The notes below the pieces were generated by a model. The model did no database searches. It had not been told where the DNA came from and saw only the letters and a list, made by a program, of their open reading frames with translations. Shown here piece after piece: positions 4,475 to 55,226 of a DNA stretch of 64,000 bases. The translations under genes and the position numbers were made by a program. Within the stretch, counting starts at the first letter, position 1. Every line of letters begins with the position of its first letter. The DNA is from an uncultured bacterium (GTDB lineage Bacteria > Hydrothermota > UBA3072 > B12-G15), in contig CAZQRW010000002.1 of NCBI GenBank assembly GCA_964596115.1, positions 15,480 through 79,479 of the forward strand. Direction: 5' to 3'.

Positions 4475-6439
4475 TTATCTTCCTAATTTTGTGCCCACTA
4501 TAATGGGCTTAGTTAATTTTTCAGTTTTTCCATCTGTTTCTTTTACAACAATATGAATGAGATAAAGTCCGATAGTTACTTTTTTATCATACTCATCCTC
4601 TCCATTCCAGTATGTCTCGTATGGCCCACCTGGATAATTCACAACAAGAATCTTCACCAATCTGCCCTCAGCATCAAAAATCTTTGCAGTAATGCTTGAG
4701 TTATGTGGAGCGGTTATTTTTACATCCGCAACCTCACCCAGGTCATAAGAGAATGGATTTGGTGTAATTGTACAGGTGAGTACCTCTGTTGTTTCCGAAG
4801 GTATCTCCATAACTATATCGTTCATATCTCTGGGAAGAAGTTGATAACCAGTTGTATATGGTTCATGGGAGTCATATTGACCACCAACACCCGTAATAGT
4901 AAATATGTCTCCCTTACCCATCATATTTCTCATTGAGTCAACATTTATACCTGTGCCTGTTTCTAACCTTATGGTTATATATGCCTGACCATTTGCAACG
5001 GTAAAATTGTAACCCCCTCCAGCTGCTATTGGTGTTAATGGTGTCACGACCTTTGATTTTTTTACACAGAGGAGCCTTCCCTCGGTGGATTCATCAAGAC
5101 CAACCGATGTGGCGAGCGTCTCCGGTTTAAATATGGGATCCCATCTCGAAATTAGTGTGACATCGGATGGATTATTCACCTTCACCTCTGTTAATCCATT
5201 ATATTCATCTACAGTACCCTTTATCAAATACCTATAATTCCTTTTTACAGGGATAGCATCATAGGAAAATATATCAACTCCGCTGGTGGTATCATTCAAA
5301 TAGAAACCGGTCCCCGTTGGAGAGATATTTCCCGTTACTGCATAGCCGAGCACAGTAACAACATCACCAAGCATACCAGAGGTAACGCCATCAGGGCCTG
5401 GATTCTGAACGTCTCTTAGATCTGTTATTGTGGGCATTGCTATAATTTTTATGAATGGTTTTCCAGCAACAGAAAAAATGTTATTATCCATACTTCCCTC
5501 AACCCTGAATGTAAATGTGCCTGTCGTATCAATAATGACATTATTAACCTGGATCATCACTGTATCAAATATACTGGTGCCAAAGACCTTAATTGTGTCT
5601 CCTGTTGAATCGGATACAACTACTGCTGAATCATTTGAGGGAAGATCAATTGAACCAACATTATGAGACCAGATAATTTCGGGAGGGATAAAAACTCTGA
5701 GATAACTCACCGTATCTATAGTACTTATGACCCGAAATTTTAGATTAAAATTAACCCTCTCAAAAAATTGAACAGGGTCACAATCTGCATAGAGCCCCTC
5801 TATCTCTCCAGGCTCAAGGATATCTCTGTCATCTCTGGGAAGGATCTTGTAATCGTAGTAATAGTCTACCGGACCTGTAACACTATATGTATCACCTACA
5901 ACAGGTTCAAAGTAAAAAATCCTATCGTCAACTATTGCAGGTCCACTTCCATCATCAACCTCCCACTCCCCATAGGCATTAACACCCTGCGTGCAAGCTG
6001 CTTTTACAACCTTTACAAGCACACCTTCATACTTCTCATCGGATATATTACCGGTGGAATCAATAACAGGGTCAGGGGGCGTTGTAGAACCAAGTACTGT
6101 AATTTCATCTGGATAAGAGACCTCTGTAACACCATAGTATTCGCTCACCTTCCCAGTAATTCTTACACTATCCCCCCTCTCAACACCTGGATTTGAGGAA
6201 CCATTGTATATATAAATCCCTCTCCAGGCACCACCTGGTTTCATCTCAACAAAGAAGGCATATCTTGTACTTCCACCAGACAGGTATGTAAAAGGTGCGG
6301 TAACAACACCGTAGAAAGTGACGGTGCTGTCAACAAATGGTGAAGAACTGGCGTGTCCCTGAATCTCTTCAATAGTATGAACCCCTCCAATCATAGAGAG
6401 GGGCAAAAAGGCCAATAAAAAAATTGATATTTTCTTCAT
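4475..6439 (-). CDS. Secreted multi-domain protein with two extracellular-nuclease-type OB-fold repeats and a C-terminal FlgD-Ig-like/T9SS-type sorting domain
   Basis: Signal peptide at the N-terminus. Residues ~20-150 read 'HTIEEIQGHASSSPFVDSTVTFYGVVTAPF…GDSVRITGKVSEYYGVTEV'. This is the I.EIQG…SP..G..VT..GVVT pattern of the N-terminal OB-fold in COG2374 extracellular nucleases. A second copy follows ('GDVVTVLGYAVTG…IKGTVDEYNGLTEV'). The C-terminus reads 'KIFDAEGRLVKILVV…GLYLIHIV', a FlgD-Ig/Por-secretion-tail-like domain. The gene is paralogous to 6453-7397. Confidence 0.55.
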   Translation of the reverse strand: MKKISIFLLAFLPLSMIGGVHTIEEIQGHASSSPFVDSTVTFYGVVTAPFTYLSGGSTRYAFFVEMKPGGAWRGIYIYNGSSNPGVERGDSVRITGKVSEYYGVTEVSYPDEITVLGSTTPPDPVIDSTGNISDEKYEGVLVKVVKAACTQGVNAYGEWEVDDGSGPAIVDDRIFYFEPVVGDTYSVTGPVDYYYDYKILPRDDRDILEPGEIEGLYADCDPVQFFERVNFNLKFRVISTIDTVSYLRVFIPPEIIWSHNVGSIDLPSNDSAVVVSDSTGDTIKVFGTSIFDTVMIQVNNVIIDTTGTFTFRVEGSMDNNIFSVAGKPFIKIIAMPTITDLRDVQNPGPDGVTSGMLGDVVTVLGYAVTGNISPTGTGFYLNDTTSGVDIFSYDAIPVKRNYRYLIKGTVDEYNGLTEVKVNNPSDVTLISRWDPIFKPETLATSVGLDESTEGRLLCVKKSKVVTPLTPIAAGGGYNFTVANGQAYITIRLETGTGINVDSMRNMMGKGDIFTITGVGGQYDSHEPYTTGYQLLPRDMNDIVMEIPSETTEVLTCTITPNPFSYDLGEVADVKITAPHNSSITAKIFDAEGRLVKILVVNYPGGPYETYWNGEDEYDKKVTIGLYLIHIVVKETDGKTEKLTKPIIVGTKLGR

Positions 6440-8453: not shown

Positions 8454-8792
8454 ATGATTAATTCATATAAGTTTGGGGTTATAAATATCAACGGTAAAAC
8501 CTATATGAAGGACGTAATCATTATTGGTGACGAAGTATTCCATCCATGGTGGAGAAGGGAAGGGCACAGGGTATATCCTGAGGATCTCAAATATCCACTT
8601 GAGAAGAACGTAAATAAAATTGTTATTGGCACAGGATACTGGAACAGGGTGACAATACCCAAAGAAACAAAGAATTTTTTAAAAGACAACGGCATTGAAT
8701 TTATTTTTTTAGGAACAAAAGAGGCAGTGGATATGTACAACAACGATAAAGAGAAAACTTCTACTGCCTACTGCCTCCACCTTACCTGCTAA
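8454..8792 (+). CDS. Mth938-like domain protein (DUF498 family)
   Basis: 112 aa. The sequence 'KTYMKDVIIIGDEVFHPWW…IVIGTGYWNRVTIPKE…GIEFIFLGTKEAV' is typical of the Mth938-like fold family. It is the only plus-strand gene in a long minus-strand stretch. Confidence 0.45.
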   Translation: MINSYKFGVININGKTYMKDVIIIGDEVFHPWWRREGHRVYPEDLKYPLEKNVNKIVIGTGYWNRVTIPKETKNFLKDNGIEFIFLGTKEAVDMYNNDKEKTSTAYCLHLTC

Positions 8793-8838
8793 ATAGCTAT
8801 CCTACAGGTTTTCAAACTATAATACCTTTTGGTTTACC

Positions 8839-9759
8839 CTACTTCATTAGCATTACCATCAATGCCTTCTGTGCATGGAGTCTGTTTTCTGCTTCATCAA
8901 GAACAATGGAATGGGGCCCATCAAGGACTTCACTTGTTATTTCTTCACCTCTATGTGCAGGAAGACAATGCATAACTACTGCATCTTTTTTTGCTACTTC
9001 AAGAAGTCGAGTGTTAACCTGAAACCTCTGAAAATCCATTTTTCTCTTCTCTGCTTCATCCTCCTGACCCATTGATGCCCATACATCTGTATAAATTATA
9101 TCTGCATCTCTTACAGCCTCCACAGGATCGTTAACAATTTTCACAATTGAGCCTGTCCCCTTTGCAAGATTTTTTGCTTTATTAACAATTTCAGGATTTG
9201 CTTCATATCCATCCGGACATCCAAGTGTAAAATTAGCTCCGAGGATGGCGGAGGCAAGCATAAGGGAGTGGGCAACATTGTTACCATCACCAATAAATGC
9301 AAGCTTCAATCCTTTAAAGTTCCCCTTGTGTTCCTGAATAGTAAGAAAATCGGCAAGTATCTGACAGGGATGTTCAAGATCTGATAAGCCATTTATTACA
9401 GGGACTGATGCATTCTCTGCAAGGTCAGTCACTGTCTTATGGGCAAAGGTTCTCGCCATTATTCCATTCACCCACCTTGAAAGATTTCTTGCAACATCTG
9501 GAACAGCTTCTCTTTTGCCAAGTTTTATATCGGTCGGAGCAAGGTAAATCCCATATCCACCCAGTTGATATATACCTGTTTCAAAAGTCACCCTTGTTCT
9601 CAGGGATGGTTTTTCAAATATCATTGCCAGAACCTTCCCCTTTAGTATATGATATTCCTTACCTCTTTTTACTTTTTCCTTCAACTCCCTTGCAAGTTTA
9701 AAGAGTCTAAGCATCTCGTCCTTTGATAGGTCAGTTATGGAAACAAGATCTTTTTTCAC
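8839..9759 (-). CDS. argF: Ornithine carbamoyltransferase
   Basis: Carbamoyl-phosphate-binding 'SLRTRVTFE' (STRTR motif). Ornithine-binding 'HCLPAHRGEE' (HCLP motif). Length is 306 aa. Confidence 0.9.
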   Translation of the reverse strand: MKKDLVSITDLSKDEMLRLFKLARELKEKVKRGKEYHILKGKVLAMIFEKPSLRTRVTFETGIYQLGGYGIYLAPTDIKLGKREAVPDVARNLSRWVNGIMARTFAHKTVTDLAENASVPVINGLSDLEHPCQILADFLTIQEHKGNFKGLKLAFIGDGNNVAHSLMLASAILGANFTLGCPDGYEANPEIVNKAKNLAKGTGSIVKIVNDPVEAVRDADIIYTDVWASMGQEDEAEKRKMDFQRFQVNTRLLEVAKKDAVVMHCLPAHRGEEITSEVLDGPHSIVLDEAENRLHAQKALMVMLMK

Positions 9760-15251: not shown

Positions 15252-15856
15252 TATAACTCCTCTATCTCTATTTCATTGTTTGTGAATATACATATCTCTG
15301 AGGCAATTTTTAAACTTTTCTCCACAATTTCTCTGGCGGAAAGCTTGGATACCTGAAGGAAGGCCCTTGCCGCTGCAAGTGCATATGGACCACCAGAGCC
15401 AAGAGCAATGATATCATCATCAGGTTGAACAACGTCCCCGTTCCCAGAAACAAGAAAACTTAAATCCCTATTCATTATACCCAATATTGCCTCAAGTCTT
15501 CTTAAATATTTATCCATTCTCCACTCTTTCGCAAGTTCTACAACTGCCTTTGTGAGATTTCCGGGAAATGTGTTCAATTTTTGTTCAAATCTTTCTAATA
15601 GTGCAAGCCCATCTGCAGCGCTACCAGCAAATCCGACAAGTATCTCTCCATTATGAAGTTTCCTTATCTTTTTTGCACCTTTCTTCATAATTGTATTTTG
15701 AAAGGTTACCTGACCATCACCACCCATTGCAACTTTTCCATCCTTTCTTACACCAATTATTGTAGTGCTCTTAAATATACTCCTCAAATCCTTTTTCAAT
15801 TCCACACCTCCTGAATATTTCATTGGCGAGTTCCCTATACTCCTCCTCTTCTTCAT
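15251..15856 (-). CDS. hslV: ATP-dependent protease subunit HslV; the true start is probably internal (TTG at 15797-15799, preceded by AGGAGG)
   Basis: 'STTIIGVRKDGKVAMGGDGQVT' contains the catalytic N-terminal Thr context. The longest ORF begins at 15856 and overlaps the upstream gene by 85 nt. An AGGAGG Shine-Dalgarno lies 7 nt ahead of a TTG at 15797-15799, which would give a short propeptide ahead of the TT. Confidence 0.9.
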   Translation of the reverse strand: MKKRRSIGNSPMKYSGGVELKKDLRSIFKSTTIIGVRKDGKVAMGGDGQVTFQNTIMKKGAKKIRKLHNGEILVGFAGSAADGLALLERFEQKLNTFPGNLTKAVVELAKEWRMDKYLRRLEAILGIMNRDLSFLVSGNGDVVQPDDDIIALGSGGPYALAAARAFLQVSKLSAREIVEKSLKIASEICIFTNNEIEIEEL

Positions 15857-18602
15857 AAAAGGTAGAAAGAAAAGAAAGAATATTATAATCTTTTGCTATT
15901 TCCCATAGTGTGCCATAAATCTTATGGGCGTTTATTGCCTTCTCCCCATATTTCTTTGCCAAAAGGGAATCCCCCAATCTATCTTTTACTATTGCTAACA
16001 ACCTATATACCTCGCCCCTTTTCTCATTTGTTACTTCATTCTCCAGTCTTTTAAGTAATCTATCTGCATCCTTATACATTTTACCCCTTATAAGCAATTC
16101 TGCTTCACCAATTCCCAACTCGTATTTCACATCCTTATATCCATATTTCTCAACAATCTTTCTTGCTCTATTGAAATACACAGAAGCCTTTTTATTGTTG
16201 CCCTTTTTTGTCTCCATTCTACCAAGAAGTACATATGTACTTGACAAATTCGGCAAGATATGGGCCTTCCGCAAATTTTCCAGTGCTTTATCCAGATAAC
16301 TCTTAATATTTTTTGTATCACCTATTTCAAATAACAAATCTGCTATAAAGTAATTGATTGAGCCAATAAGAGAACTATTTCCAATCTTCTCGGCAACACC
16401 GAGTGCATATTCATAATGTTTTAACGCCTCTTTCAATATTGATTCCTTTTCATAAATTAAGCCAATATTCATATATAATGATGGTATGGAATCAGTATCT
16501 GCAAGTTCTATAAATCCTTTTAAGGCCTTACCGTAATATTTTCTTGCTTCATCAAGGTCACCCCTTGAATAATATATCGCTCCCATTCTATTTTGAAAGA
16601 TTGATGTCCAATAATTATCATTTAACTTATATGCTATTGATATCCCATTCCTGTAATAATTCAACGCACTTTGAAATTTTTTCTCACTATACTCCAGAGC
16701 ACCGAGGGCTGCAAAGGCTCTCATTTGATCTTCCATCTTTTTTGACAACCTTAATGATTCCTGTGCGTACTCTCGTGCCCTTTTAAAATCTCCAACAGCA
16801 AGAAGGACCTCGGCTATGATAGGAAGTGCATCTTCTCGTATTGATTCCAGCGTATTAAATGCATCCTCCATATTACCCATCTTTGCATATAATATACCTA
16901 TCTTTTTTACTATCTCCACATCCTTTTTGTTTTCCAATGCTTTATTGAACATTTCCAACGCATTACGGAATTCACCTTTTTTATAAAAAATATCCCCCCA
17001 TCTTTCATAAAATGTTTTTCTGTTAAACCATTCTTCATTAATCCATTTCTTAAGCCTCCCAAGAACTTCCTCTGCATCTATAAGAAGACCCTTATCCAAT
17101 AAAGTTCTTACAAGTAAAAGAGACTGTTCTGTTTCATTTACAAAATCTCCTGCCATTCCAAATTGATACGCAGAAGGCCCAGGATAACCCTTCCTGGAAA
17201 GAATCATCCCTGCTTTTCTATGTAACTCTTTTCTTTTACTTCCTATTCCCTGGTATAACTTCTTTCTCAGTTCTTCCGTTGATATTATAAAATTTTCAGA
17301 TGGTTTGAGAAGACCAACGCTTAAGCCAAAGTTTTTCATTTTATATACCTCGTCACGAGAAATTCCCAATATATCTGCAATTAATTCACAATCACCAATG
17401 TCACCAAGAAGTGCCCCAACTTGAAAGATCATCCCCTCTTCCTTTTTGAGTTTCTTATACGTTTTAAACAGATTCCCTTCAATGTCTGTATCAATAATCT
17501 TACCCATCTGAATTTTATTTTTCCCCAGCTTTATAACGTTGTTATTAAGGAAATTATTCAATGTAGACAAAAGTTTGCCAGGTATTCCCCGGGTCTTATC
17601 AAAAAGATATGCAACAAGATTGTCATCTATATCTTGCATCCCAATAAAAGAAGAAATAAAATCCTTTGTTCCATATAGATCAAGTGGTTCAAGATTTATT
17701 TTCAAGAACTGATTCATACCAACATCCTCTTTTCCCGAAAGTATTAGAAAGAATTTTTCTTTACCCATTATAGATGGCAATTTTTCAAGAAATTTTCTTG
17801 TCTCCATTGAACAGGACTCAATATCGTCAATACACCAAAAAACTGGCCTTCCAGATATCGATGGTGAAATACTGTTAAGCACTTTCCATGTTGGATTAAA
17901 TGATTTGTCACCAGTAAGAAATTGAAGGGGCTCATAACCAAAATCTTTCTTGCAATTAAATGATGTCGCATCAAAACCTGCAAGATTTGCATATATCAAA
18001 AGTTCCGAAAGTATCCTTGTCTTGCCAACCCCCTCAACTCCTGTTAGGTATATAAATTTCGGATTTCCTCGGGAAGCCTCCTCTAAGCCAGATTTTAGGA
18101 TGGAAAGAACGTTTTCCCTCCCAACAAATCTTATCCCATAATGATCCTTCCTCTTTGCTTTAAGCAATATATCATCGGCACATTTCAGAAGCTTGGAAAG
18201 ATCATCTCCATCCTCTGGGTATGTTGCAGAACCAATTGTAAAGGATATCCTTACAGGTGGGTCTCCAGCGAATTCTCTGTGAAAAACAATATCGTTAATA
18301 TATCCCTCAAAAGAATCCATTAAAGATTTATCTGTAACAATTATAATAAATTCATCCCCTCCATACCTCACCACTGTACCCCTATTCTGCACCGATTTTT
18401 CAAGAATGTCAGCAACATCCCTTAATACTTCATCTCCACGCATATGTCCATAACTATCATTAATCATTTTAAAAAAGTCAATGTCAAGCAAAAACAGTCT
18501 AAAAGACTTTCGGTCTTCAATTAAATCGTTAACATAAGGCTTAAGAAAACTCCTTGTATATAGCCCGGTCAAATCATCGAGCTTTCTACTTTTGGATTTC
18601 AT
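15771..18602 (-). CDS. Multidomain signalling protein: N-terminal GGDEF diguanylate cyclase, central STAND/AAA_16-type P-loop NTPase, and a C-terminal TPR array
   Basis: The GGDEF domain has an intact 'RYGGDEF' and 'DIDFFKMINDSYGH'. Walker A 'LTGVEGVGKT' and Walker B 'VFWCIDDIE' follow. There are then ~450 aa of TPR-like repeats (…YYSRGDLDEARKYYGKAL…). The gene overlaps guaB at its 5' end and hslV at its 3' end. Confidence 0.8.
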   Translation of the reverse strand: MKSKSRKLDDLTGLYTRSFLKPYVNDLIEDRKSFRLFLLDIDFFKMINDSYGHMRGDEVLRDVADILEKSVQNRGTVVRYGGDEFIIIVTDKSLMDSFEGYINDIVFHREFAGDPPVRISFTIGSATYPEDGDDLSKLLKCADDILLKAKRKDHYGIRFVGRENVLSILKSGLEEASRGNPKFIYLTGVEGVGKTRILSELLIYANLAGFDATSFNCKKDFGYEPLQFLTGDKSFNPTWKVLNSISPSISGRPVFWCIDDIESCSMETRKFLEKLPSIMGKEKFFLILSGKEDVGMNQFLKINLEPLDLYGTKDFISSFIGMQDIDDNLVAYLFDKTRGIPGKLLSTLNNFLNNNVIKLGKNKIQMGKIIDTDIEGNLFKTYKKLKKEEGMIFQVGALLGDIGDCELIADILGISRDEVYKMKNFGLSVGLLKPSENFIISTEELRKKLYQGIGSKRKELHRKAGMILSRKGYPGPSAYQFGMAGDFVNETEQSLLLVRTLLDKGLLIDAEEVLGRLKKWINEEWFNRKTFYERWGDIFYKKGEFRNALEMFNKALENKKDVEIVKKIGILYAKMGNMEDAFNTLESIREDALPIIAEVLLAVGDFKRAREYAQESLRLSKKMEDQMRAFAALGALEYSEKKFQSALNYYRNGISIAYKLNDNYWTSIFQNRMGAIYYSRGDLDEARKYYGKALKGFIELADTDSIPSLYMNIGLIYEKESILKEALKHYEYALGVAEKIGNSSLIGSINYFIADLLFEIGDTKNIKSYLDKALENLRKAHILPNLSSTYVLLGRMETKKGNNKKASVYFNRARKIVEKYGYKDVKYELGIGEAELLIRGKMYKDADRLLKRLENEVTNEKRGEVYRLLAIVKDRLGDSLLAKKYGEKAINAHKIYGTLWEIAKDYNILSFLSTFYEEEEEYRELANEIFRRCGIEKGFEEYI

Positions 18603-21914: not shown

Positions 21915-22096
21915 ATTCTCCTCCTTTTCTAAAATTTCTATCTTTTTTGAAGGAAAAGTTATATTGAAGAGAAAAAATGTCAAGAGTTTATTTGGGGTCA
22001 GTAATGCAGTTTTAGAAACTGGATAGGGCCATCCAAATTTTACTACTTATCCTTACCTTGTTAATTCCGTCATAGAATTCACAATGCTAAATTTGC

Positions 22097-24757
22097 ATGA
22101 CTGAGCCCCGGTTTTTTCTCTTTCCAATTTCAGATAATGATATATATTATTTTTATATGATTCCAAAAAAACTGGAGAGGTATAAGATCATAGAATGGCT
22201 GGGGGGCGGAAGATTTGGGGATGTATACCTTGTACAGGACAAACTCCTTGAAAAAAAATTTGCACTGAAGATAGGAAGGGGTAAGGGAGACGTGGATGGT
22301 TATCTTAAAGAGGCAAAAATCATCTCCGGGCTTGAACATCCCAATATTATAAGGTTCTATACCGCTGATATGATCGAAGGAAGAATATTTATCGTAACAG
22401 AATTTATTGAAGGGAAAAGCCTTCGGGAAATCATTGAGAAAGAAGCACCCCTGGACATAAAAACGGCACTTTCTATTGGAAAAGACATACTAAAAGGGCT
22501 TTCCTATGCCCATAAAAGGGGTATTATTCACAGGGATTTGAAACCTGAAAATATTATGTTAACAAAGGATAATACAGTTAAGATTGTTGATTTTGGTATT
22601 TCAAGGATTGGTGAAGATATAACAGCATCCATTGCAGGGACACCCCCTTATATGCCTAAAGAGGCATGGAAGGGGAAATATGACGTGAGGTCTGATGAGT
22701 GGTCTGCAGCACTCATTATCTATGAGATGCTCACTGGTGTAAATCCATTTTTTTCAGAAAATCTTGAAGATGTTAGAAAAAAGATATTTAAGGGCAAAAT
22801 AAGACCATTAAAAACCGTTGCATCAAGAATAAGTATCGAAATCGAAGAGGCATTGAAGAAGGCATTATCTCCTGATATGGATGATCGTTTCCCTTCAGTA
22901 AATGATTTTCTAAGAACGTTAAGGGAAGAGACTCATTCTAACATTTCAACTATGAAGATGAAAAAAAGACCTTCAATAAAGGGCCTTCCATATCCTCTTA
23001 CAGAGGAAGAAAGGGAGGCACTAATCCATGAAGAAAATGTCCTCTTGCTGGGAGGACCAGGAACTGGTAAAACTTATACGTTAACTGCAAAGGTTATTGA
23101 CCTTATAAACAGGGGGATTTCTCCTGAGTCTGTCGTACTAACAACATTCACTCTTAGAAACTGGCATGAGCTTGAAAAACGTTTAGAAAAGGAACTGGGA
23201 ACTCTCACAAGAGATATAATACTCGGCAATTTTCACAATCTCTGTATGAGAATATTGAGGAGGGACATAGGAATCTTAGGCTTTCCTGAAGACTTTACTG
23301 TTATTCCATCATCAACCCAGGCAATAATTATGAAGTCGATATCAAAAAATTATGGGGTTAACCACAGGTACGCTATGAGAAAGATCCAGGAATATAAAGC
23401 AAGAGGACTAAAGGCAAAAGAATTTATAGAAAGAAAAATGGAAAATACGATAGTAGAAATATGGGATCAATATCAAAGTAGACTGAAGAAAGAGAACCAT
23501 CTGGATTATGATGATGTACTCATCTTTACAAGGGATATTCTAAAAAGAAATCCGGGGTTAAAAAATTTTTATACTAATAAATTTAAATACCTCGTCATTG
23601 ATGAATATCAGGACTTGAATCCTGTTCAGGTTGAGATTGTAAGATTGTTATTTTCAGGGGAAAATCAAGTATTTGCTACCGGTGATGACGACCAGATGAT
23701 ATATGGATGGAGAGGTGCTAATCTCCGAACGATAAAATTCTTTGAGAAATATTTTCCTCCCGCTATCATATTAAAATTGACAAGATCCTTTAGATTGCCA
23801 GTGAGCATATCAAACGCCGCAGCAAATCTCATAAAATACAACAGAAACAGAGAAGAAAAAATAATATTCCCTAAAAAAGTAGCGGGTGAAGGTGTCATAG
23901 TAAAACAGTTTGCAAGGAAAAATTCAGAGGCATCTTTTTTAGTAAAGGAAATTACAAAACTTGTAAAGGAGGGCTATAACTTCTCAGAGATCGCTGTAAT
24001 GTTCAGGGTCAATAGATACAGCAGATTGATAGTAGAGTCCCTTTTGAACGCAGGCATACCTCATTCAAGTCTGGGTGGTGGTTTCTATGAAAGGAAAGAA
24101 ATCGCTGGACTAATCACGCTTATGGAATTTATTATCACAAAAAAACAATCTAAACTACTCTCCGCGATAAATTTTCCTGAGACTCTTGTAAAGAAAAGAA
24201 AAAAGACAAAATCAAAAGACATAAAAAACTACATTGAGGGGAAAAAAGATGAAGCAGCCAAAGAGCAATACAAAAAATTGCTATCACTCTCAGAAATGAT
24301 AAAGGGTATGGGAACTGCCACTGCTGTAAGGTCCGTTGTGAAATCATTGGGTCTTATTGAATATTACTCTTCTAAGGAAAATGGCATCGAAAGAATCGAA
24401 AACATAGATGAATTTATTCAGTCTGCCGAGGATTTTGAGGAAAAATTTCCAGGGAAAAATCTCAATGCATTCATCACATATGTAAAAGATATAAAGAGGG
24501 CAGGGCTTTCCGGGCAGGAAGGTGTAAACCTTCTTACCGTTCATTCTGCAAAAGGGCTTGAATTTCCTGTCGTATTTATTCTGGGATTGGAGGAAGGCAT
24601 TTTCCCTTTATTGAGAGCAATGATAACAAGGGAGGAAATGGAAGAGGAGAGAAGGCTTATGTATGTGGCTATGACAAGAGCAATTAGAAAATTATACCTT
24701 ACTTACTCAACCCCAGCAAAACCCTCACGATTCCTATCTGAAATATTCGGCCAATAG
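22097..24757 (+). CDS. Fusion protein: N-terminal Hanks-type Ser/Thr protein kinase joined to a C-terminal UvrD/PcrA-type superfamily-1 DNA helicase
   Basis: The kinase domain has a Gly loop 'LGGGRFGDVY', catalytic lysine in 'FALKIG', catalytic loop 'HRDLKPENIML', 'DFGIS' and 'GTPPYMPKE'. The helicase domain has motif I 'GGPGTGKT', motif II 'DEYQDLNPVQ', motif III 'TGDDDQMIYGWRGA' and motif VI 'VHSAKGLEFPVVFI…YVAMTRA'. It is a single uninterrupted 886-aa ORF. The true start is probably at the ATG near 22157 (MIPKKLERYKII). Confidence 0.8.
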   Translation: MTEPRFFLFPISDNDIYYFYMIPKKLERYKIIEWLGGGRFGDVYLVQDKLLEKKFALKIGRGKGDVDGYLKEAKIISGLEHPNIIRFYTADMIEGRIFIVTEFIEGKSLREIIEKEAPLDIKTALSIGKDILKGLSYAHKRGIIHRDLKPENIMLTKDNTVKIVDFGISRIGEDITASIAGTPPYMPKEAWKGKYDVRSDEWSAALIIYEMLTGVNPFFSENLEDVRKKIFKGKIRPLKTVASRISIEIEEALKKALSPDMDDRFPSVNDFLRTLREETHSNISTMKMKKRPSIKGLPYPLTEEEREALIHEENVLLLGGPGTGKTYTLTAKVIDLINRGISPESVVLTTFTLRNWHELEKRLEKELGTLTRDIILGNFHNLCMRILRRDIGILGFPEDFTVIPSSTQAIIMKSISKNYGVNHRYAMRKIQEYKARGLKAKEFIERKMENTIVEIWDQYQSRLKKENHLDYDDVLIFTRDILKRNPGLKNFYTNKFKYLVIDEYQDLNPVQVEIVRLLFSGENQVFATGDDDQMIYGWRGANLRTIKFFEKYFPPAIILKLTRSFRLPVSISNAAANLIKYNRNREEKIIFPKKVAGEGVIVKQFARKNSEASFLVKEITKLVKEGYNFSEIAVMFRVNRYSRLIVESLLNAGIPHSSLGGGFYERKEIAGLITLMEFIITKKQSKLLSAINFPETLVKKRKKTKSKDIKNYIEGKKDEAAKEQYKKLLSLSEMIKGMGTATAVRSVVKSLGLIEYYSSKENGIERIENIDEFIQSAEDFEEKFPGKNLNAFITYVKDIKRAGLSGQEGVNLLTVHSAKGLEFPVVFILGLEEGIFPLLRAMITREEMEEERRLMYVAMTRAIRKLYLTYSTPAKPSRFLSEIFGQ

Positions 24758-24847
24758 AACTCTCAAAGGAAACAATTCCACCCTTGACATAGGGTCAAAA
24801 TGTGTTATATAAAATTGATTAACTCTATAAACATTAAGGAGGTGGAA

Positions 24848-25216
24848 ATGAGCCAGGCTTTGGGAAGACATGTTTTGCTCGAGTTTTTTGGATGTGCTCC
24901 TGAGACTCTTTCAAGGGTTAATTATGTTAAGGACGCACTTTTAAATAGTGCAAGGATTTCAAATGCTAAAATTGTAGACACACTTTTCCACCAGTTTCTT
25001 CCCTATGGAGTATCAGGAGTAGTTGTTATTGAAGAGTCACATTTTACAATTCACACCTGGCCAGAACACGGCTATGCGGCAATAGACCTCTTCACCTGTA
25101 GTAACGATGTGGATGTTGAAAATGCAGTAGAATACCTCAGAAGTACGCTCCAACCGGAAAATGTTGAAAGGATAGAGGTTGACAGGGGAGCAACCTTTAA
25201 ACTGGAGGCTGTATGA
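24848..25216 (+). CDS. speH: S-adenosylmethionine decarboxylase proenzyme (small class 1b type)
   Basis: 'VIEESHFTIHTWPEHGYAAIDLFTC' contains the self-processing ES|S site and the conserved HTWPE block. AAGGAGGTG lies 5 nt upstream of the ATG at 24848. Confidence 0.85.
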   Translation: MSQALGRHVLLEFFGCAPETLSRVNYVKDALLNSARISNAKIVDTLFHQFLPYGVSGVVVIEESHFTIHTWPEHGYAAIDLFTCSNDVDVENAVEYLRSTLQPENVERIEVDRGATFKLEAV

Positions 25217-26067
25217 CGGAGGATGACCGATTATACTTTGTTGAAAAAAGTATAAAAGAAATCATCTCTTTCTACACCGTTGATGAAAGAATAATTAAAG
25301 AGAGAACGCCTTATCAGCTCGTTGAGATATACAAGTTAAAAGGATTCGGGAAATCATTGTTCCTTAATAGCGCTCTCCAATCTACGGAGTACGACGAGTA
25401 TATTTATCATGAGGGTCTTGTTCAACCTGCTATGTTTGCTCACCCTGAACCAAAAAGTGTCTTTATCGGGGGAGGAGCTGAGGGTGCTACACTGAGGGAA
25501 GTTTTGAGACATAAGGAAGTTGAAAACGTGACTATGATTGAAATAGATAAGAGAGAGTGGGAAATTTGCAATCAATTTTTACCCGAATTCTCTCAGGGTA
25601 AATTTTCTGATGAAAGGGTAAATCTTATCTTTGATGATGCAAAAACAATACTTGATAGAGAAGAAAAATACGATGTTATTATTTTTGACCTCCTCGACCC
25701 AGCGCCTTTAACCCCTTCAGAGGATATGTACAAGATACCATTTTTAAAAAAATTAAAGAAAAAATTGAAACCCGGTGGAATATTTGTTACACAGGCAGGA
25801 TCTATATATCTCAGTACTGGCAAATTCTTTTTTAGTATATGGAAACACTTAAGCAGTGTGTATTCAAATGTAGTTGCTTACGAATTACACATACCTTCAT
25901 TTCAGTTGCCCTGGGGAATCATAATAGCTTCAGATAAGCAGAATTTATTTACTCCAAAAAGAACAGACGTCAGGGGACTAAAATTTTACTCTACAGATTA
26001 CCATTCTTCTCTGTTAAATTCTTATCTTCATTTAAAGAATGAGCTGGATTTCAGAAAATCAGACTGA
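25213..26067 (+). CDS. speE: Spermidine synthase / polyamine aminopropyltransferase
   Basis: 'VFIGGGAEGATLREVLRH' (GGGDGG-type methyltransferase-fold motif) and 'DLLDP'. The start overlaps the speH stop (ATGA). Confidence 0.85.
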   Translation: MTEDDRLYFVEKSIKEIISFYTVDERIIKERTPYQLVEIYKLKGFGKSLFLNSALQSTEYDEYIYHEGLVQPAMFAHPEPKSVFIGGGAEGATLREVLRHKEVENVTMIEIDKREWEICNQFLPEFSQGKFSDERVNLIFDDAKTILDREEKYDVIIFDLLDPAPLTPSEDMYKIPFLKKLKKKLKPGGIFVTQAGSIYLSTGKFFFSIWKHLSSVYSNVVAYELHIPSFQLPWGIIIASDKQNLFTPKRTDVRGLKFYSTDYHSSLLNSYLHLKNELDFRKSD

Positions 26068-26824
26068 GAATCTGAAACTATCCTTTCGTATAAAAAAACG
26101 TCTTTTAAAGACCCGTTCAAAGTTCCAGCTTATAGAGGTCTACGACACATATGAATATGGTAAGCTTCTTCTCCTCGATAGAAAGGTAATGTTCACCGAG
26201 AAGGATGAATTCATATACCACGAAATGATTGTTCACCCTACGATGGGTATGATAAAGGCAAGAAATATACTCGTAATTGGCGGCGGAGATGGTGGAACCG
26301 TAAGGGAACTGCTAAAATATCCGGTGAATAACATCACACTCGTAGAAATTGATGAAAAAGTAATAGAAACAGCAAAAAAATTTTTCCCTCGTATGGCAGA
26401 TACGCTAAATGATAAAAGGGTTAATATAATAATTGATGATGGTTCTAAATACGTTTTAAACTCAGAGGAGGAATATGACCTCATCATTTCAGATTCAACG
26501 GACCCTATCGGTCCTGGGAAAGTGCTATTTGGAGAAAATTATGTTAAAGCCATCTCAAGAATATCAAATGTGCTTGTTTCTCAATCTGAATCTCCCATAT
26601 TCCATAGGGAATTAATAAAAAAATTCCATAGTATAATAAAAAAATACTTTAAAAATCTCTTGTTTTATTTTGTTCCTATCCCTACTTATCCATCGGGTAT
26701 ATGGTCCTTTACTGTGGGTCTGAATGTAAATATTAAAAAACCCAACAACAAATCTCAGAAATTTTATTCCCCATCATTATTTGAAGGACTTACCCATATA
26801 CCAGAAGCATTTAAAATTAAATGA
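26039..26824 (+). CDS. Second polyamine aminopropyltransferase paralog (spermidine-synthase family)
   Basis: 'ILVIGGGDGGTVRELLKYP', 'VEIDEKVIE' and 'IISDSTDPIGPG' match the aminopropyltransferase family. It is clearly diverged from the upstream copy. It overlaps both neighbours. Confidence 0.8.
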   Translation: MSWISENQTENLKLSFRIKKRLLKTRSKFQLIEVYDTYEYGKLLLLDRKVMFTEKDEFIYHEMIVHPTMGMIKARNILVIGGGDGGTVRELLKYPVNNITLVEIDEKVIETAKKFFPRMADTLNDKRVNIIIDDGSKYVLNSEEEYDLIISDSTDPIGPGKVLFGENYVKAISRISNVLVSQSESPIFHRELIKKFHSIIKKYFKNLLFYFVPIPTYPSGIWSFTVGLNVNIKKPNNKSQKFYSPSLFEGLTHIPEAFKIK

Positions 26825-28299
26825 AGGAATCCTTGAGAAAAAAATTCCTTGAAAATGAAGGGGGTAAAATCCGACCTGCTGGAGGATTTATAAAAGTCGC
26901 CCTTGGTTATCCAAATAATTACGCTGTCGGTATGTCCAACCTTGGTTTTCAGTGGATATATTTCCTTATAAACAAAAAGAAAGAATCATTTGCTGAAAGG
27001 TTCTTTTATTCTAATGATTATCCTGTTACCCTTGAAAGTGGAAGAAAGATCGTCCTATCAGACATTATAGCCTTCTCTATTTCCTTTGAACCGGATTATT
27101 TCCGTGTGGTTGAGATGATAAGAAACACGGGGCTTAATCCCTTAACGGAAAAGAGAAAAGAAAATGACCCTATAATCATAGCAGGGGGCGGATTTGCGAC
27201 GATTAATCCAGAACCTATTGCTCCATTCTTTGACATTATCTTTATTGGCGATGGGGAGGGAGTGATTGAAGAATTTATAGAAACAGTGTCCAAATACAAG
27301 GGAAAAAAGGATTGGAAGAAAAAGGTAAAAGAAGATATAGCAGGCATTAATGGAATATATATACCTGAGTATATCAAAACTGGTTTTACCAATGAAAACT
27401 ACAAAATAGAAGGGAATTTCCCAGTGAAAAAAAACATCTATTCAGGAGAAGAGCCGGCATTTACCCCTATATTGTCAAATTTTACTCATTTCAAGGATAT
27501 GGAACTTATTGAAATTGAAAGAGGCTGCAAATTCAGATGTAAGTTCTGTTCTGTCGGATATGTAAATAATCCTTTCAGAATGTATAAAAAAGATAAAATA
27601 TTAAATAATATTTTCCATAAGAAAGTTGGACTCATCGGGGCTGCAGTAGCAGATTATACAGGGTTAGAAAGTCTTCTTGATTCTCTGGTGGGAAAAGTTG
27701 AGCATTTGGGCATCTCTAGCGTAAGAGTGGATAGACTTACCTCTGACACTCTGAAACTGTTAAAAAAACTTTATGTAAATTCTATAACTATTGCCCCAGA
27801 GGTTGCCAGTGACAGAATGAGAAAAAAAATTGGGAAATTTGTGAGTCTGAATAAGATCTTAAAGGTTGTAGAAATAATGAACAATGTTGGAATCACGCAT
27901 CTTAAGCTTTACTTTATCATTGGCCTTCCGGGTGAGGAAGATCAAGATGTACAAAGAATAATTGAAGATGTAAAGATTATCTCAAAAACTTTCAGTGGAA
28001 ATATTTCAATAAGCGTAAATCCCTTTGTTCCAAAACCATTTACCCCATTTCAATTCGAACCATATATAGGAAGAAAAATCTTCTCAAGAAGGGCAAGAAT
28101 GTTGCGTGTTGGTTTGAGGAATGTTAAATTAACAATTAAACCATATATGGGAGGATTGATTCAAACAATTCTTTCAAGGGGAGGACGTGATGTTGCCACA
28201 GGTCTATTAAAGGGCAATGTTATGGATTATAAATATTATAGTGGTAGACTTCAAAATTCTCACCTATACCCGTGGAATGTAATAGAGACAAAAGTATGA
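26821..28299 (+). CDS. Radical SAM enzyme with an N-terminal Rossmann/B12-binding-like domain; the last gene of the speH-speE-speE operon
   Basis: 'ERGCKFRCKFCSVGY' is a CxxxCxxC cluster motif. The N-terminal 'ALGYPNNYAVGMSNLGFQ' is typical of rSAM proteins with an N-terminal flavodoxin/B12-like domain. The start overlaps the upstream stop (ATGA). Confidence 0.8.
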   Translation: MKESLRKKFLENEGGKIRPAGGFIKVALGYPNNYAVGMSNLGFQWIYFLINKKKESFAERFFYSNDYPVTLESGRKIVLSDIIAFSISFEPDYFRVVEMIRNTGLNPLTEKRKENDPIIIAGGGFATINPEPIAPFFDIIFIGDGEGVIEEFIETVSKYKGKKDWKKKVKEDIAGINGIYIPEYIKTGFTNENYKIEGNFPVKKNIYSGEEPAFTPILSNFTHFKDMELIEIERGCKFRCKFCSVGYVNNPFRMYKKDKILNNIFHKKVGLIGAAVADYTGLESLLDSLVGKVEHLGISSVRVDRLTSDTLKLLKKLYVNSITIAPEVASDRMRKKIGKFVSLNKILKVVEIMNNVGITHLKLYFIIGLPGEEDQDVQRIIEDVKIISKTFSGNISISVNPFVPKPFTPFQFEPYIGRKIFSRRARMLRVGLRNVKLTIKPYMGGLIQTILSRGGRDVATGLLKGNVMDYKYYSGRLQNSHLYPWNVIETKV

Positions 28300-55032: not shown

Positions 55033-55106
55033 GCACTTATTATGGGCGAAAGAGGAGTTGAACCTCTGACCTCCGGTATGTGAGACCGGTGCTCTAACCA
55101 ACTGAG
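55033..55106 (-). tRNA. tRNA-Val (anticodon CAC)
   Basis: The minus-strand read GGGCGAATAGCTCAGTTGGTTAGAGCACCGGTCTCACATACCGGAGGTCAGAGGTTCAACTCCTCTTTCGCCCA folds as a cloverleaf. The anticodon loop CTCACAT has U33 and A37. No CCA is encoded. Confidence 0.85.
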
Positions 55107-55152
55107 CTATTCGCCCTTCCAAATCTTTCTCCCATATATACTCTGTATTAAG

Positions 55153-55226
55153 TGGGCCCGGTAGGGATTGAACCCACGACCTGCTGATTATGAGTCAGCC
55201 GCTCTAACCAACTGAGCTACGGGCCC
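55153..55226 (-). tRNA. tRNA with anticodon CAT (elongator Met or lysidine-modified Ile2; not an initiator, since pair 1:72 is G:C)
   Basis: The minus-strand read GGGCCCGTAGCTCAGTTGGTTAGAGCGGCTGACTCATAATCAGCAGGTCGTGGGTTCAATCCCTACCGGGCCCA has anticodon stem GCTGA/TCAGC and loop CTCATAA. Confidence 0.85.

Follow-up and report, generated by a model that had tools for sequence, protein, structure and literature searches.

A rare family of bacterial proteins joining a Hanks-type Ser/Thr kinase to a tail-less UvrD-type helicase core, with ARPP as a recurrent neighbour

In bacteria, Hanks-type Ser/Thr kinases are mostly understood as membrane sensors, and only a few of them (such as YabT and RqkA) are linked to DNA. 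To our knowledge, no bacterial Hanks kinase has a motor protein as its input domain, and the UvrD-family helicases that we know of are steered by C-terminal or 2B-domain partners rather than serving as carriers of a signalling enzyme. A single open reading frame (ORF) encoding both activities, at 22097..24757 (+) of a 64,000-nucleotide stretch of contig CAZQRW010000002.1 from an uncultured bacterium (hereafter the window), raises the question of whether such a fusion is a genuine and conserved protein and, if so, what it might do. The reading frame comprises 886 codons without an internal stop, as stated in a first-pass annotation made from the sequence alone, which had described it as a kinase joined to a complete UvrD/PcrA helicase. 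The analysis presented here places the protein in a small conserved family, whose members are encoded in most of the loci compared next to a gene for an ARPP-domain protein, and points tentatively to a role in genome maintenance.

The encoded protein is spanned by three Pfam domains, all scoring far above their curated cut-offs. The Hanks-type Ser/Thr kinase domain (22181..22891, +; residues 29–265 of the ORF) matches Pkinase with 165.6 bits (E 1.9e-48) against a cut-off of 31.7. It is followed by an inter-domain linker (22928..22996, +), variable in sequence, conserved in length and of low predicted local distance difference test score (pLDDT), and then by the N-terminal 1A/1B part of a UvrD/REP helicase (22997..23755, +; PF00580, residues 301–553, 206 bits, E 9e-61), also recognized by motif alignment. 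The UvrD_C part, comprising 2A/2B with motifs IV–VI (23774..24709, +; PF13361, residues 560–871, 170 bits, E 9.5e-50), completes the protein. All the motifs quoted by the first-pass annotation are present. The kinase contains a GGGRFGDV Gly-loop, FALK, the alphaC Glu, HRDLKPEN, DFG, a Ser/Thr-containing activation loop and YMPKE in place of YMAPE, with the catalytically relevant Glu retained. The helicase contains motifs Q, I, Ia, II, III, IV, V and VI, among them Walker A (GGPGTGKT), DEYQD, TGDDDQMIYGWRGA, HSAKGLEFP and YVAMTRA; motif III reads TGDDDQ..YGWRGA, and the Gln of the Q-motif is replaced by Glu. In the 886-residue numbering, the kinase Lys is K58, the Asp of HRD is D147, the Walker A Lys is K325 and the Q-motif Glu is E305. 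Both halves look catalytically competent, and no transmembrane, ligand-binding or other sensor domain was detected in the Pfam domain scan of the protein.

The family to which this protein belongs was defined here by a single polypeptide of 830–960 residues in which Pkinase stands N-terminally and is joined by a linker of approximately 30 residues to a tail-less UvrD core. The window protein matches the family profile in a single stretch and aligns over its full length with 73 other members, at 31–89 % identity. A search of 5.8 billion clusters identified about 110 clusters (at 90 % identity) with the full-length architecture, 32–89 % identical to the window protein, and below them ordinary PcrA proteins of about 33 % identity, matched in the helicase part alone. 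The cluster labels are mostly WOR-3 and also include Thermosulfidibacter/Thermosulfidibacteraceae, Planctomycetes and unclassified bacteria, while a partial member of the window protein's own 90 % cluster is labelled 'candidate division WOR-3 bacterium'. In an exhaustive profile search, the 1.84 billion 50 %-identity representatives gave 31 matches that are full-length and in a single stretch (813–1153 bits), one further distant full-length member confirmed by Pfam (P0187) and three fragments; the next matches beyond the family were multi-kinase proteins and standard PcrA/UvrD. The architecture, regarded as unusual from the outset, is therefore recurrent but rare, with full-length representatives numbering only about 32 in the 1.84 billion, and it forms a conserved family rather than a one-off. 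Reverse-order or independently evolved kinase–UvrD fusions were not found among the top 150 representatives, in which the long matches either had several kinase domains or were UvrD proteins extended in other ways. At the level of contigs, a scan of genome contigs with the single protein recovered only the close relatives at loci L001 and L002, its other matches being ordinary PcrA loci. The family-alignment scans of metagenome and viral contigs keyed on generic kinase patterns (GGGRFGDV, HRDLKPEN) and yielded almost solely kinase-only loci, with one full-length relative (L089).

The residues required for catalysis are retained in both halves throughout the family. In the kinase, HRDxKPEN, DFG and the Glu of APE are invariant in 74 members and the Lys of AxK is present in all but one of them; in the helicase, Walker A (GxGxGK), DExQD, the Asp of motif III and the Arg of motifs IV and VI are invariant. 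This conservation indicates that kinase and helicase are both under purifying selection. Mean column identity is highest in the kinase (0.59), followed by 1A/1B (0.50), 2B (0.33) and the linker (0.21), whose length varies from 28 to 47 residues.

The protein is likely to begin at the second ATG, at position 22157, and would then be 866 residues long (22157..24757, +, including the stop codon). The database copy P0001, which is 100 % identical, has this length and starts at this codon; the N-termini of the family align at the same Met, most gene calls use it, and the 886-residue call occurs in only one of four cluster members. The 20-codon in-frame upstream extension (22097..22156, +) is unconserved in the family alignment and is probably untranslated. 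A promoter scan identified within it sigma-70-like hexamers (TTTCCA-16/18-TATATT/TATTAT, at 22121–22150), and no Shine–Dalgarno sequence was seen before the 22157 start. Since the hexamers end 7–9 nucleotides before the ATG, the fusion mRNA may be leaderless or carry a very short leader. The divergent intergenic region between bioY, on the minus strand, and the fusion ORF (21984..22096) was delimited from the sequence and the promoter scan.

Both domains are predicted to fold. The AlphaFold2 model, based on the 74-sequence alignment, has a mean pLDDT of 86.4 and comprises two well-folded modules, with values of about 90 over the helicase core, whereas the linker (P0001 residues 258–273, pLDDT <50) and the activation loop are modelled as disordered. 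The predicted template modelling score (pTM) of 0.57 leaves the relative orientation of the two modules undefined; the model thus depicts folded domains that are flexibly linked. In Foldseek comparisons the helicase half superposes on the DNA complexes of UvrD (2is6) and PcrA (1pjr) with a TMt of 0.67–0.70 and an E value of about 1e-42 over 610–650 columns, and the kinase half on the kinase domains of PknB and Stk1 with a TMt of 0.83–0.85. In the model, the fusion has the four-subdomain 1A/1B/2A/2B fold of UvrD-type helicases. Sequence and Foldseek comparison with the Protein Data Bank (PDB) found no solved structure that contains a kinase and a UvrD domain in one chain.

The description of the helicase as complete holds for the motor core but not for the whole of PcrA/UvrD. 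The helicase half matches residues 12–620 of the 724 residues of Geobacillus PcrA (1pjr, E 1e-88) as well as E. coli UvrD, and its core is 33 % identical to PcrA, which is the best match in both NCBIfam (421 bits) and the PDB. Because the match to TIGR01073 spans model positions 5–611 of 725, the alignment indicates a complete 1A/1B/2A/2B motor core that terminates directly after 2A. The C-terminal Tudor domain (PF21196; RNA-polymerase-binding), present in the ordinary PcrA matches, is absent from all fusion proteins. The scores fall well below the equivalog cut-offs for PcrA (TIGR01073, 421 vs 911 bits) and UvrD (TIGR01075, 353 vs 1144 bits), and below that for Rep. In its helicase motifs, all of which are present, and in its four-subdomain core the fusion agrees with PcrA, UvrD and Rep; it differs from them in the N-terminal kinase, the missing Tudor domain and its position in a separate tree group: in a rough neighbour-joining tree of helicase cores, computed without bootstrap, one split places all 39 fusions and protein P0194 opposite 46 PcrA/UvrD representatives. 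This topology is consistent with a single origin of the fusion and with a distinct clade of the UvrD family. P0194 is a kinase-less UvrD-like protein of 577 residues with a shortened UvrD_C region that nests within the fusion clade; it may represent a fragment, part of a split gene or a member that secondarily lost its kinase. The window protein also differs from PcrA/UvrD/Rep, and from nearly all of its own family, in the Gln of the Q-motif (codon at nucleotides 23009–23011); its sequence there is LTEEEREA, against LTxEQxEA in the family. The Gln is kept in 72 of the 74 members, and Glu occurs only in the window protein and in P0002, which is 89 % identical to it.

The clearest feature of the genomic context is found in the relatives. 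When the ORFs lying up to 6 kb on either side of the fusion were compared all against all in 12 family loci from distant lineages, only one recurrent neighbour emerged, a gene encoding an ARPP domain (PF20208, ARPP-1; Pfam E values of about 1e-59 for the genes checked). It is adjacent to the fusion and co-oriented with it in nine of the 12 loci, with fusion proteins 32–55 % identical to that of the window. In eight loci, whose fusions are 32–39 % identical to the window protein, the ARPP gene lies directly upstream on the same strand (L085:9128-9997; L087:9046-9996, in L087/88; L249:5081-6004; L250:3396-4241; L251:3179-4033; L253:4917-5939; L254:5099-6004; L255:750-1661), overlapping the fusion by 4 bp in four of them and separated from it by 3–61 bp in the others. 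In the closest relative with flanking sequence, whose fusion is 55 % identical, it lies downstream (L001:3828-4703). The ARPP gene is not adjacent in L252 and was not found in the short contig L089; it is absent from the whole window, as judged by tblastn and by a hidden Markov model built from nine ARPPs. The earlier description of the gene as standing alone is thus accurate for the window, where it is solo and apparently monocistronic, but not for most of its relatives, in which it belongs to a two-gene unit. A GGDEF-domain match links three of the 12 loci and probably reflects how common GGDEF is. The remaining neighbours are housekeeping genes that vary by locus (rpsL-rpsG-fusA, efp, ftsZ/ftsA, ABC transporters, tRNA synthetases and, in L253, nfi), with synteny shared by L250 and L251.

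Several further observations were made at individual loci. In L252, an M48 peptidase gene (5240-6004) shares 4 bp with the start of the fusion, on whose last called base (8616) a radical SAM gene (8616-9749) starts; the operon partners in this lineage differ. In L250 (6849-7841) and L251 (6695-7666), approximately the last 17–20 bp of the fusion also belong to an ORF of 323–330 residues that matches no Pfam family and may be a lineage-specific third component. In L253, labelled 'bacterium JZ-2024 1', a gene for endonuclease V (PF04493, deaminated-base repair; 8865-9560, –) lies directly downstream of the ARPP/fusion pair and convergent with it, an adjacency seen in this single instance. Finally, a solo ARPP (P0148), 47 % identical to that of L001, was found on 5-kb contigs with a guanine + cytosine (GC) content of 0.37 (L256:3699-4571; L257:3923-4795; L258:2478-3350), flanked by a UDP-GlcNAc-2-epimerase-like (Epimerase_2) gene and by priA, which is convergent with it. 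It could be the relocated ARPP of the window lineage; the tetranucleotide correlation of these contigs with the window (r = 0.96) is non-discriminating, given that the window's own range is 0.92–0.99 and unrelated low-GC loci reach 0.94.

What is known of ARPP derives from the study by Iyer, Burroughs, Anantharaman and Aravind (2022), who defined it as a fold without characterised relatives, with an absolutely conserved Cys and Gln that suggest catalysis (PMC9503650). It occurs in ARG-centred systems predicted to be anti-viral (ADP-ribose systems), and the authors suggested that it acts on sugar moieties, possibly via SRAP-like covalent cross-linking (PMC9503650). The reported two-gene partners of ARPP are HIRAN and WYL transcription factors (PMC9503650); HIRAN binds DNA 3' ends. 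The fusion relatives likewise form a tight two-gene unit with ARPP; the window copy of the fusion has no ARPP within 64 kb. Since no UvrD or protein-kinase partner is mentioned in that study (PMC9503650), the pairing of ARPP with a kinase–UvrD fusion appears to be undescribed. A literature search on PF20208 found no paper, and none was found on the kinase–UvrD architecture or on its linkage to ARPP. Database names of the fusion are generic ('UvrD-helicase domain-containing protein', 'protein kinase domain-containing protein' and 'DNA 3'-5' helicase'), and no functional description was found. HIRAN, several WYL regulators (PafBC and DriD) and UvrD all bind single-stranded DNA (ssDNA) or 3' ends; such binding would be a common theme of the cytosolic partners of ARPP.

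The reading that we favour, with a confidence somewhat short of even, is that the fusion is a bifunctional cytosolic enzyme of a small chromosomal family, in which a Hanks kinase is tethered to a superfamily 1A motor and serves in genome maintenance or in ssDNA-stress signalling. Genome maintenance is favoured because of the housekeeping context, the synteny of L250 and L251, the native base composition of the gene (GC 0.35–0.37, equal to its flanks) and its absence from mobile elements. The helicase would be the sensor and targeting module of the kinase, since the kinase possesses neither a membrane anchor nor another sensor domain. It would load on ssDNA or 3' tails, such as arise as replication or repair intermediates, and translocate 3'→5', thereby placing the kinase on DNA. 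PknB-type kinases are generally activated by trans-autophosphorylation, and where at least two molecules occupy one DNA their kinase domains could meet and trans-autophosphorylate. The active kinase would then phosphorylate DNA-bound proteins and/or the co-encoded ARPP, and would be in effect a DNA-dependent protein kinase. ARPP contains a conserved SxT, located in a loop that is predicted to be flexible. In most lineages the fusion would operate together with ARPP, predicted to be a Cys/Gln enzyme and encoded in the same two-gene unit; the WOR-3 copy of the window is solo. We infer in this scheme the DNA-triggered activation of the kinase, the identity of its substrates and its physiological role. 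In a more specific version, which we regard as unlikely, helicase-coupled DNA-dependent kinases would accumulate and trans-activate on ssDNA and phosphorylate DNA-bound proteins and ARPP, itself acting on DNA sugar or 3'-end lesions. The two proteins would then constitute a hitherto unrecognised checkpoint for ssDNA damage or replication stress, comparable in principle to eukaryotic ATR/DNA-PK signalling, in WOR-3, Thermosulfidibacter-like and related lineages, of which many were recovered from hot environments.

Bacterial precedents exist for a kinase that responds to DNA. YabT of B. subtilis, which belongs to the Hanks kinases but has no receptor domain, must bind DNA to become active and phosphorylates RecA (PMC3708118, PMC6333020), and RqkA of Deinococcus is a DNA-damage-responsive kinase (PMC6052341). 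The likeness of either to the fusion is a functional analogy only and implies no orthology. YabT is membrane-anchored and binds DNA via a short basic juxtamembrane motif, whereas the fusion would use a whole ATP-driven translocase; RqkA has another kind of sensor domain. The fusion kinase shares with PknB, Stk1 and PrkC the full catalytic signature, and its fold agrees with M. tuberculosis PknB and S. aureus Stk1 as given above, but it contains no transmembrane helix, PASTA or extracellular sensor and has a C-terminal DNA motor instead.

Several points weigh against the proposed role. The structural model contains no confident kinase–helicase interface, and allosteric coupling between the modules is unsupported by it. 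The Glu that replaces the family-conserved Gln of the Q-motif may alter nucleotide binding and ATPase activity in the window protein. The best-described contexts of ARPP, the predicted anti-viral ADP-ribose systems, point to conflict rather than repair (PMC9503650), and a two-gene cassette whose surroundings change from lineage to lineage, and in which ARPP may precede or follow the fusion, resembles a mobile defence module. The absence of the fusion from plasmids and phages is weak evidence for these phyla, as the collections are skewed towards cultured hosts.

Some of these points favour a different function, namely that of an anti-phage sensor-effector, which we consider a serious, if less likely, alternative. 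The UvrD-like module would sense phage DNA ends or replication intermediates and switch on the kinase, which would phosphorylate many host or phage proteins and so lead to growth arrest or blocked infection, with ARPP as co-effector. Such sensing has been proposed for GajB of the Gabija system, and kinases of the Stk2 and PD-T4-6 types arrest growth or block infection. The two halves of the fusion score against the PADLOC models at 266 bits for GajB, 229 for mad6 and 212 for PD-T4-6; ARPP is known mainly from predicted conflict systems; and the cassette is compact, with ARPP upstream or downstream and a different neighbourhood in every lineage, in a family that is rare and looks patchy in its phyletic distribution. 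On the other hand, the PADLOC matches are at the domain level only, and the defining partners are missing: no GajA-like gene (OLD-family ATPase–TOPRIM nuclease) was seen in any of the 12 loci, and no BREX or MADS genes lie nearby. The scores against PglW (93 vs 990 bits) and MAD6 (183 vs 460 bits) fall short of the cut-offs. The likeness to GajB, Stk2, PD-T4-6, Mad6 and PglW is thus one of domain-level model similarity and of a shared concept of nucleic-acid sensor plus effector; the matches are below the NCBIfam equivalog cut-offs, and none of Gabija, BREX, MADS, PD-T4-6 or Stk2 is known to join a kinase to a UvrD core. The defence-island context raised earlier was found in none of the neighbourhoods compared: all 12 loci are free of restriction-modification, CRISPR, toxin–antitoxin, integrase and transposase neighbours and are flanked by ribosomal, cell-division, biosynthetic and transporter genes. 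The synteny of L250 and L251 and the GC content of the gene also argue against mobility. Neither a collection of 72,556 plasmids nor one of 50,697 phages yielded a copy covering at least 80 % of the protein, and the 80 loci kept from the viral-contig scan were all kinase-only, with no full-length match among them.

Genome maintenance could also be served in a simpler way. The fusion might be the housekeeping PcrA/UvrD of its lineage, acting in replication, nucleotide-excision repair and mismatch repair, with a mainly self-regulatory kinase that autophosphorylates in cis or trans, for example on the 2B domain or the linker, and has no dedicated signalling output. PcrA is the best match in both protein collections, the chromosomal context is of the housekeeping type, and the window contains no second UvrD-like gene. 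We nevertheless judge this improbable: the scores are far below the equivalog cut-offs, the Tudor tail of ordinary PcrA/UvrD is missing, the fusion cores and P0194 split from PcrA/UvrD in the helicase tree, and a stretch of 64 kb is much too short to rule out that a canonical PcrA is encoded at another site of the genome. ARPP, as a conserved partner, and the strong conservation of the kinase further suggest an output beyond self-regulation. An artefact, either a chimeric assembly or a pseudo-ORF in which a sequencing error joins two genes, needs to be considered only because the genome was derived from a metagenome. It has practically no probability, since 20 contigs that stem from several independent assemblies and sources encode the identical 866-residue protein, always between bioY and the S-adenosylmethionine decarboxylase (AdoMetDC) gene, which excludes a frameshift or chimeric assembly, and since the recurrent clusters and representatives share domain order and linker length at similar total lengths (831–913 residues).

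In the window, the gene lies where the first-pass annotation had placed it, between the divergent bioY upstream and a polyamine operon (AdoMetDC/spermidine synthase) downstream. Beyond bioY, the opposite strand carries a RidA-like gene, dapF, the gene for IMPDH and that of a GGDEF–AAA–TPR protein; on the strand of the fusion, AdoMetDC (speH) is followed by two spermidine synthase paralogues (speE, speE) and a radical SAM gene. A promoter-like site (TTGACA-16-TATATA), which was not on the list of the consensus promoter scan, and a strong AAGGAGGTG Shine–Dalgarno sequence precede the AdoMetDC ATG at 24848 (window positions 24784–24850). Because the downstream gene has these signals of its own, the fusion gene is probably monocistronic and the polyamine operon transcribed separately. 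The cluster at 24800–28299 encodes the AdoMet decarboxylase, the two spermidine/spermine synthase paralogues in tandem and a radical SAM protein whose N-domain is PF19864; together these genes may serve polyamine biosynthesis. No second kinase gene was found within the window, and scans for Rfam families and tandem repeats yielded nothing associated with the fusion gene; two adjacent tRNA genes at 55043–55226 (–) were the sole Rfam matches in the window above the gathering score. The GGDEF–AAA_16–TPR protein, of 943 residues, is encoded at 15771–18602 (–), 3.5 kb upstream of the fusion gene. In L250 (8383-9279) and L251 (8208-9104), which are syntenic, genes for FHA–GGDEF proteins lie approximately 1.5 kb from the fusion on its downstream side. 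Since FHA domains read phospho-Thr, a link from the kinase to cyclic di-GMP is conceivable; alternatively, the proximity may be due to chance.

Both domains of the fusion belong to thoroughly known families; what is new is a UvrD-family motor that bears a signalling kinase instead of a C-terminal partner-binding tail. As a conserved combination, the kinase–UvrD fusion would offer a directly testable model of DNA-triggered phosphosignalling in bacteria, and its conserved partnership with ARPP, a widespread domain, provides a new, DNA-centred handle on the role of the latter. Should its function turn out to lie in defence, a new sensor-effector architecture would be gained. In both cases, the kinase–UvrD family constitutes a small, well-defined target for biochemistry.

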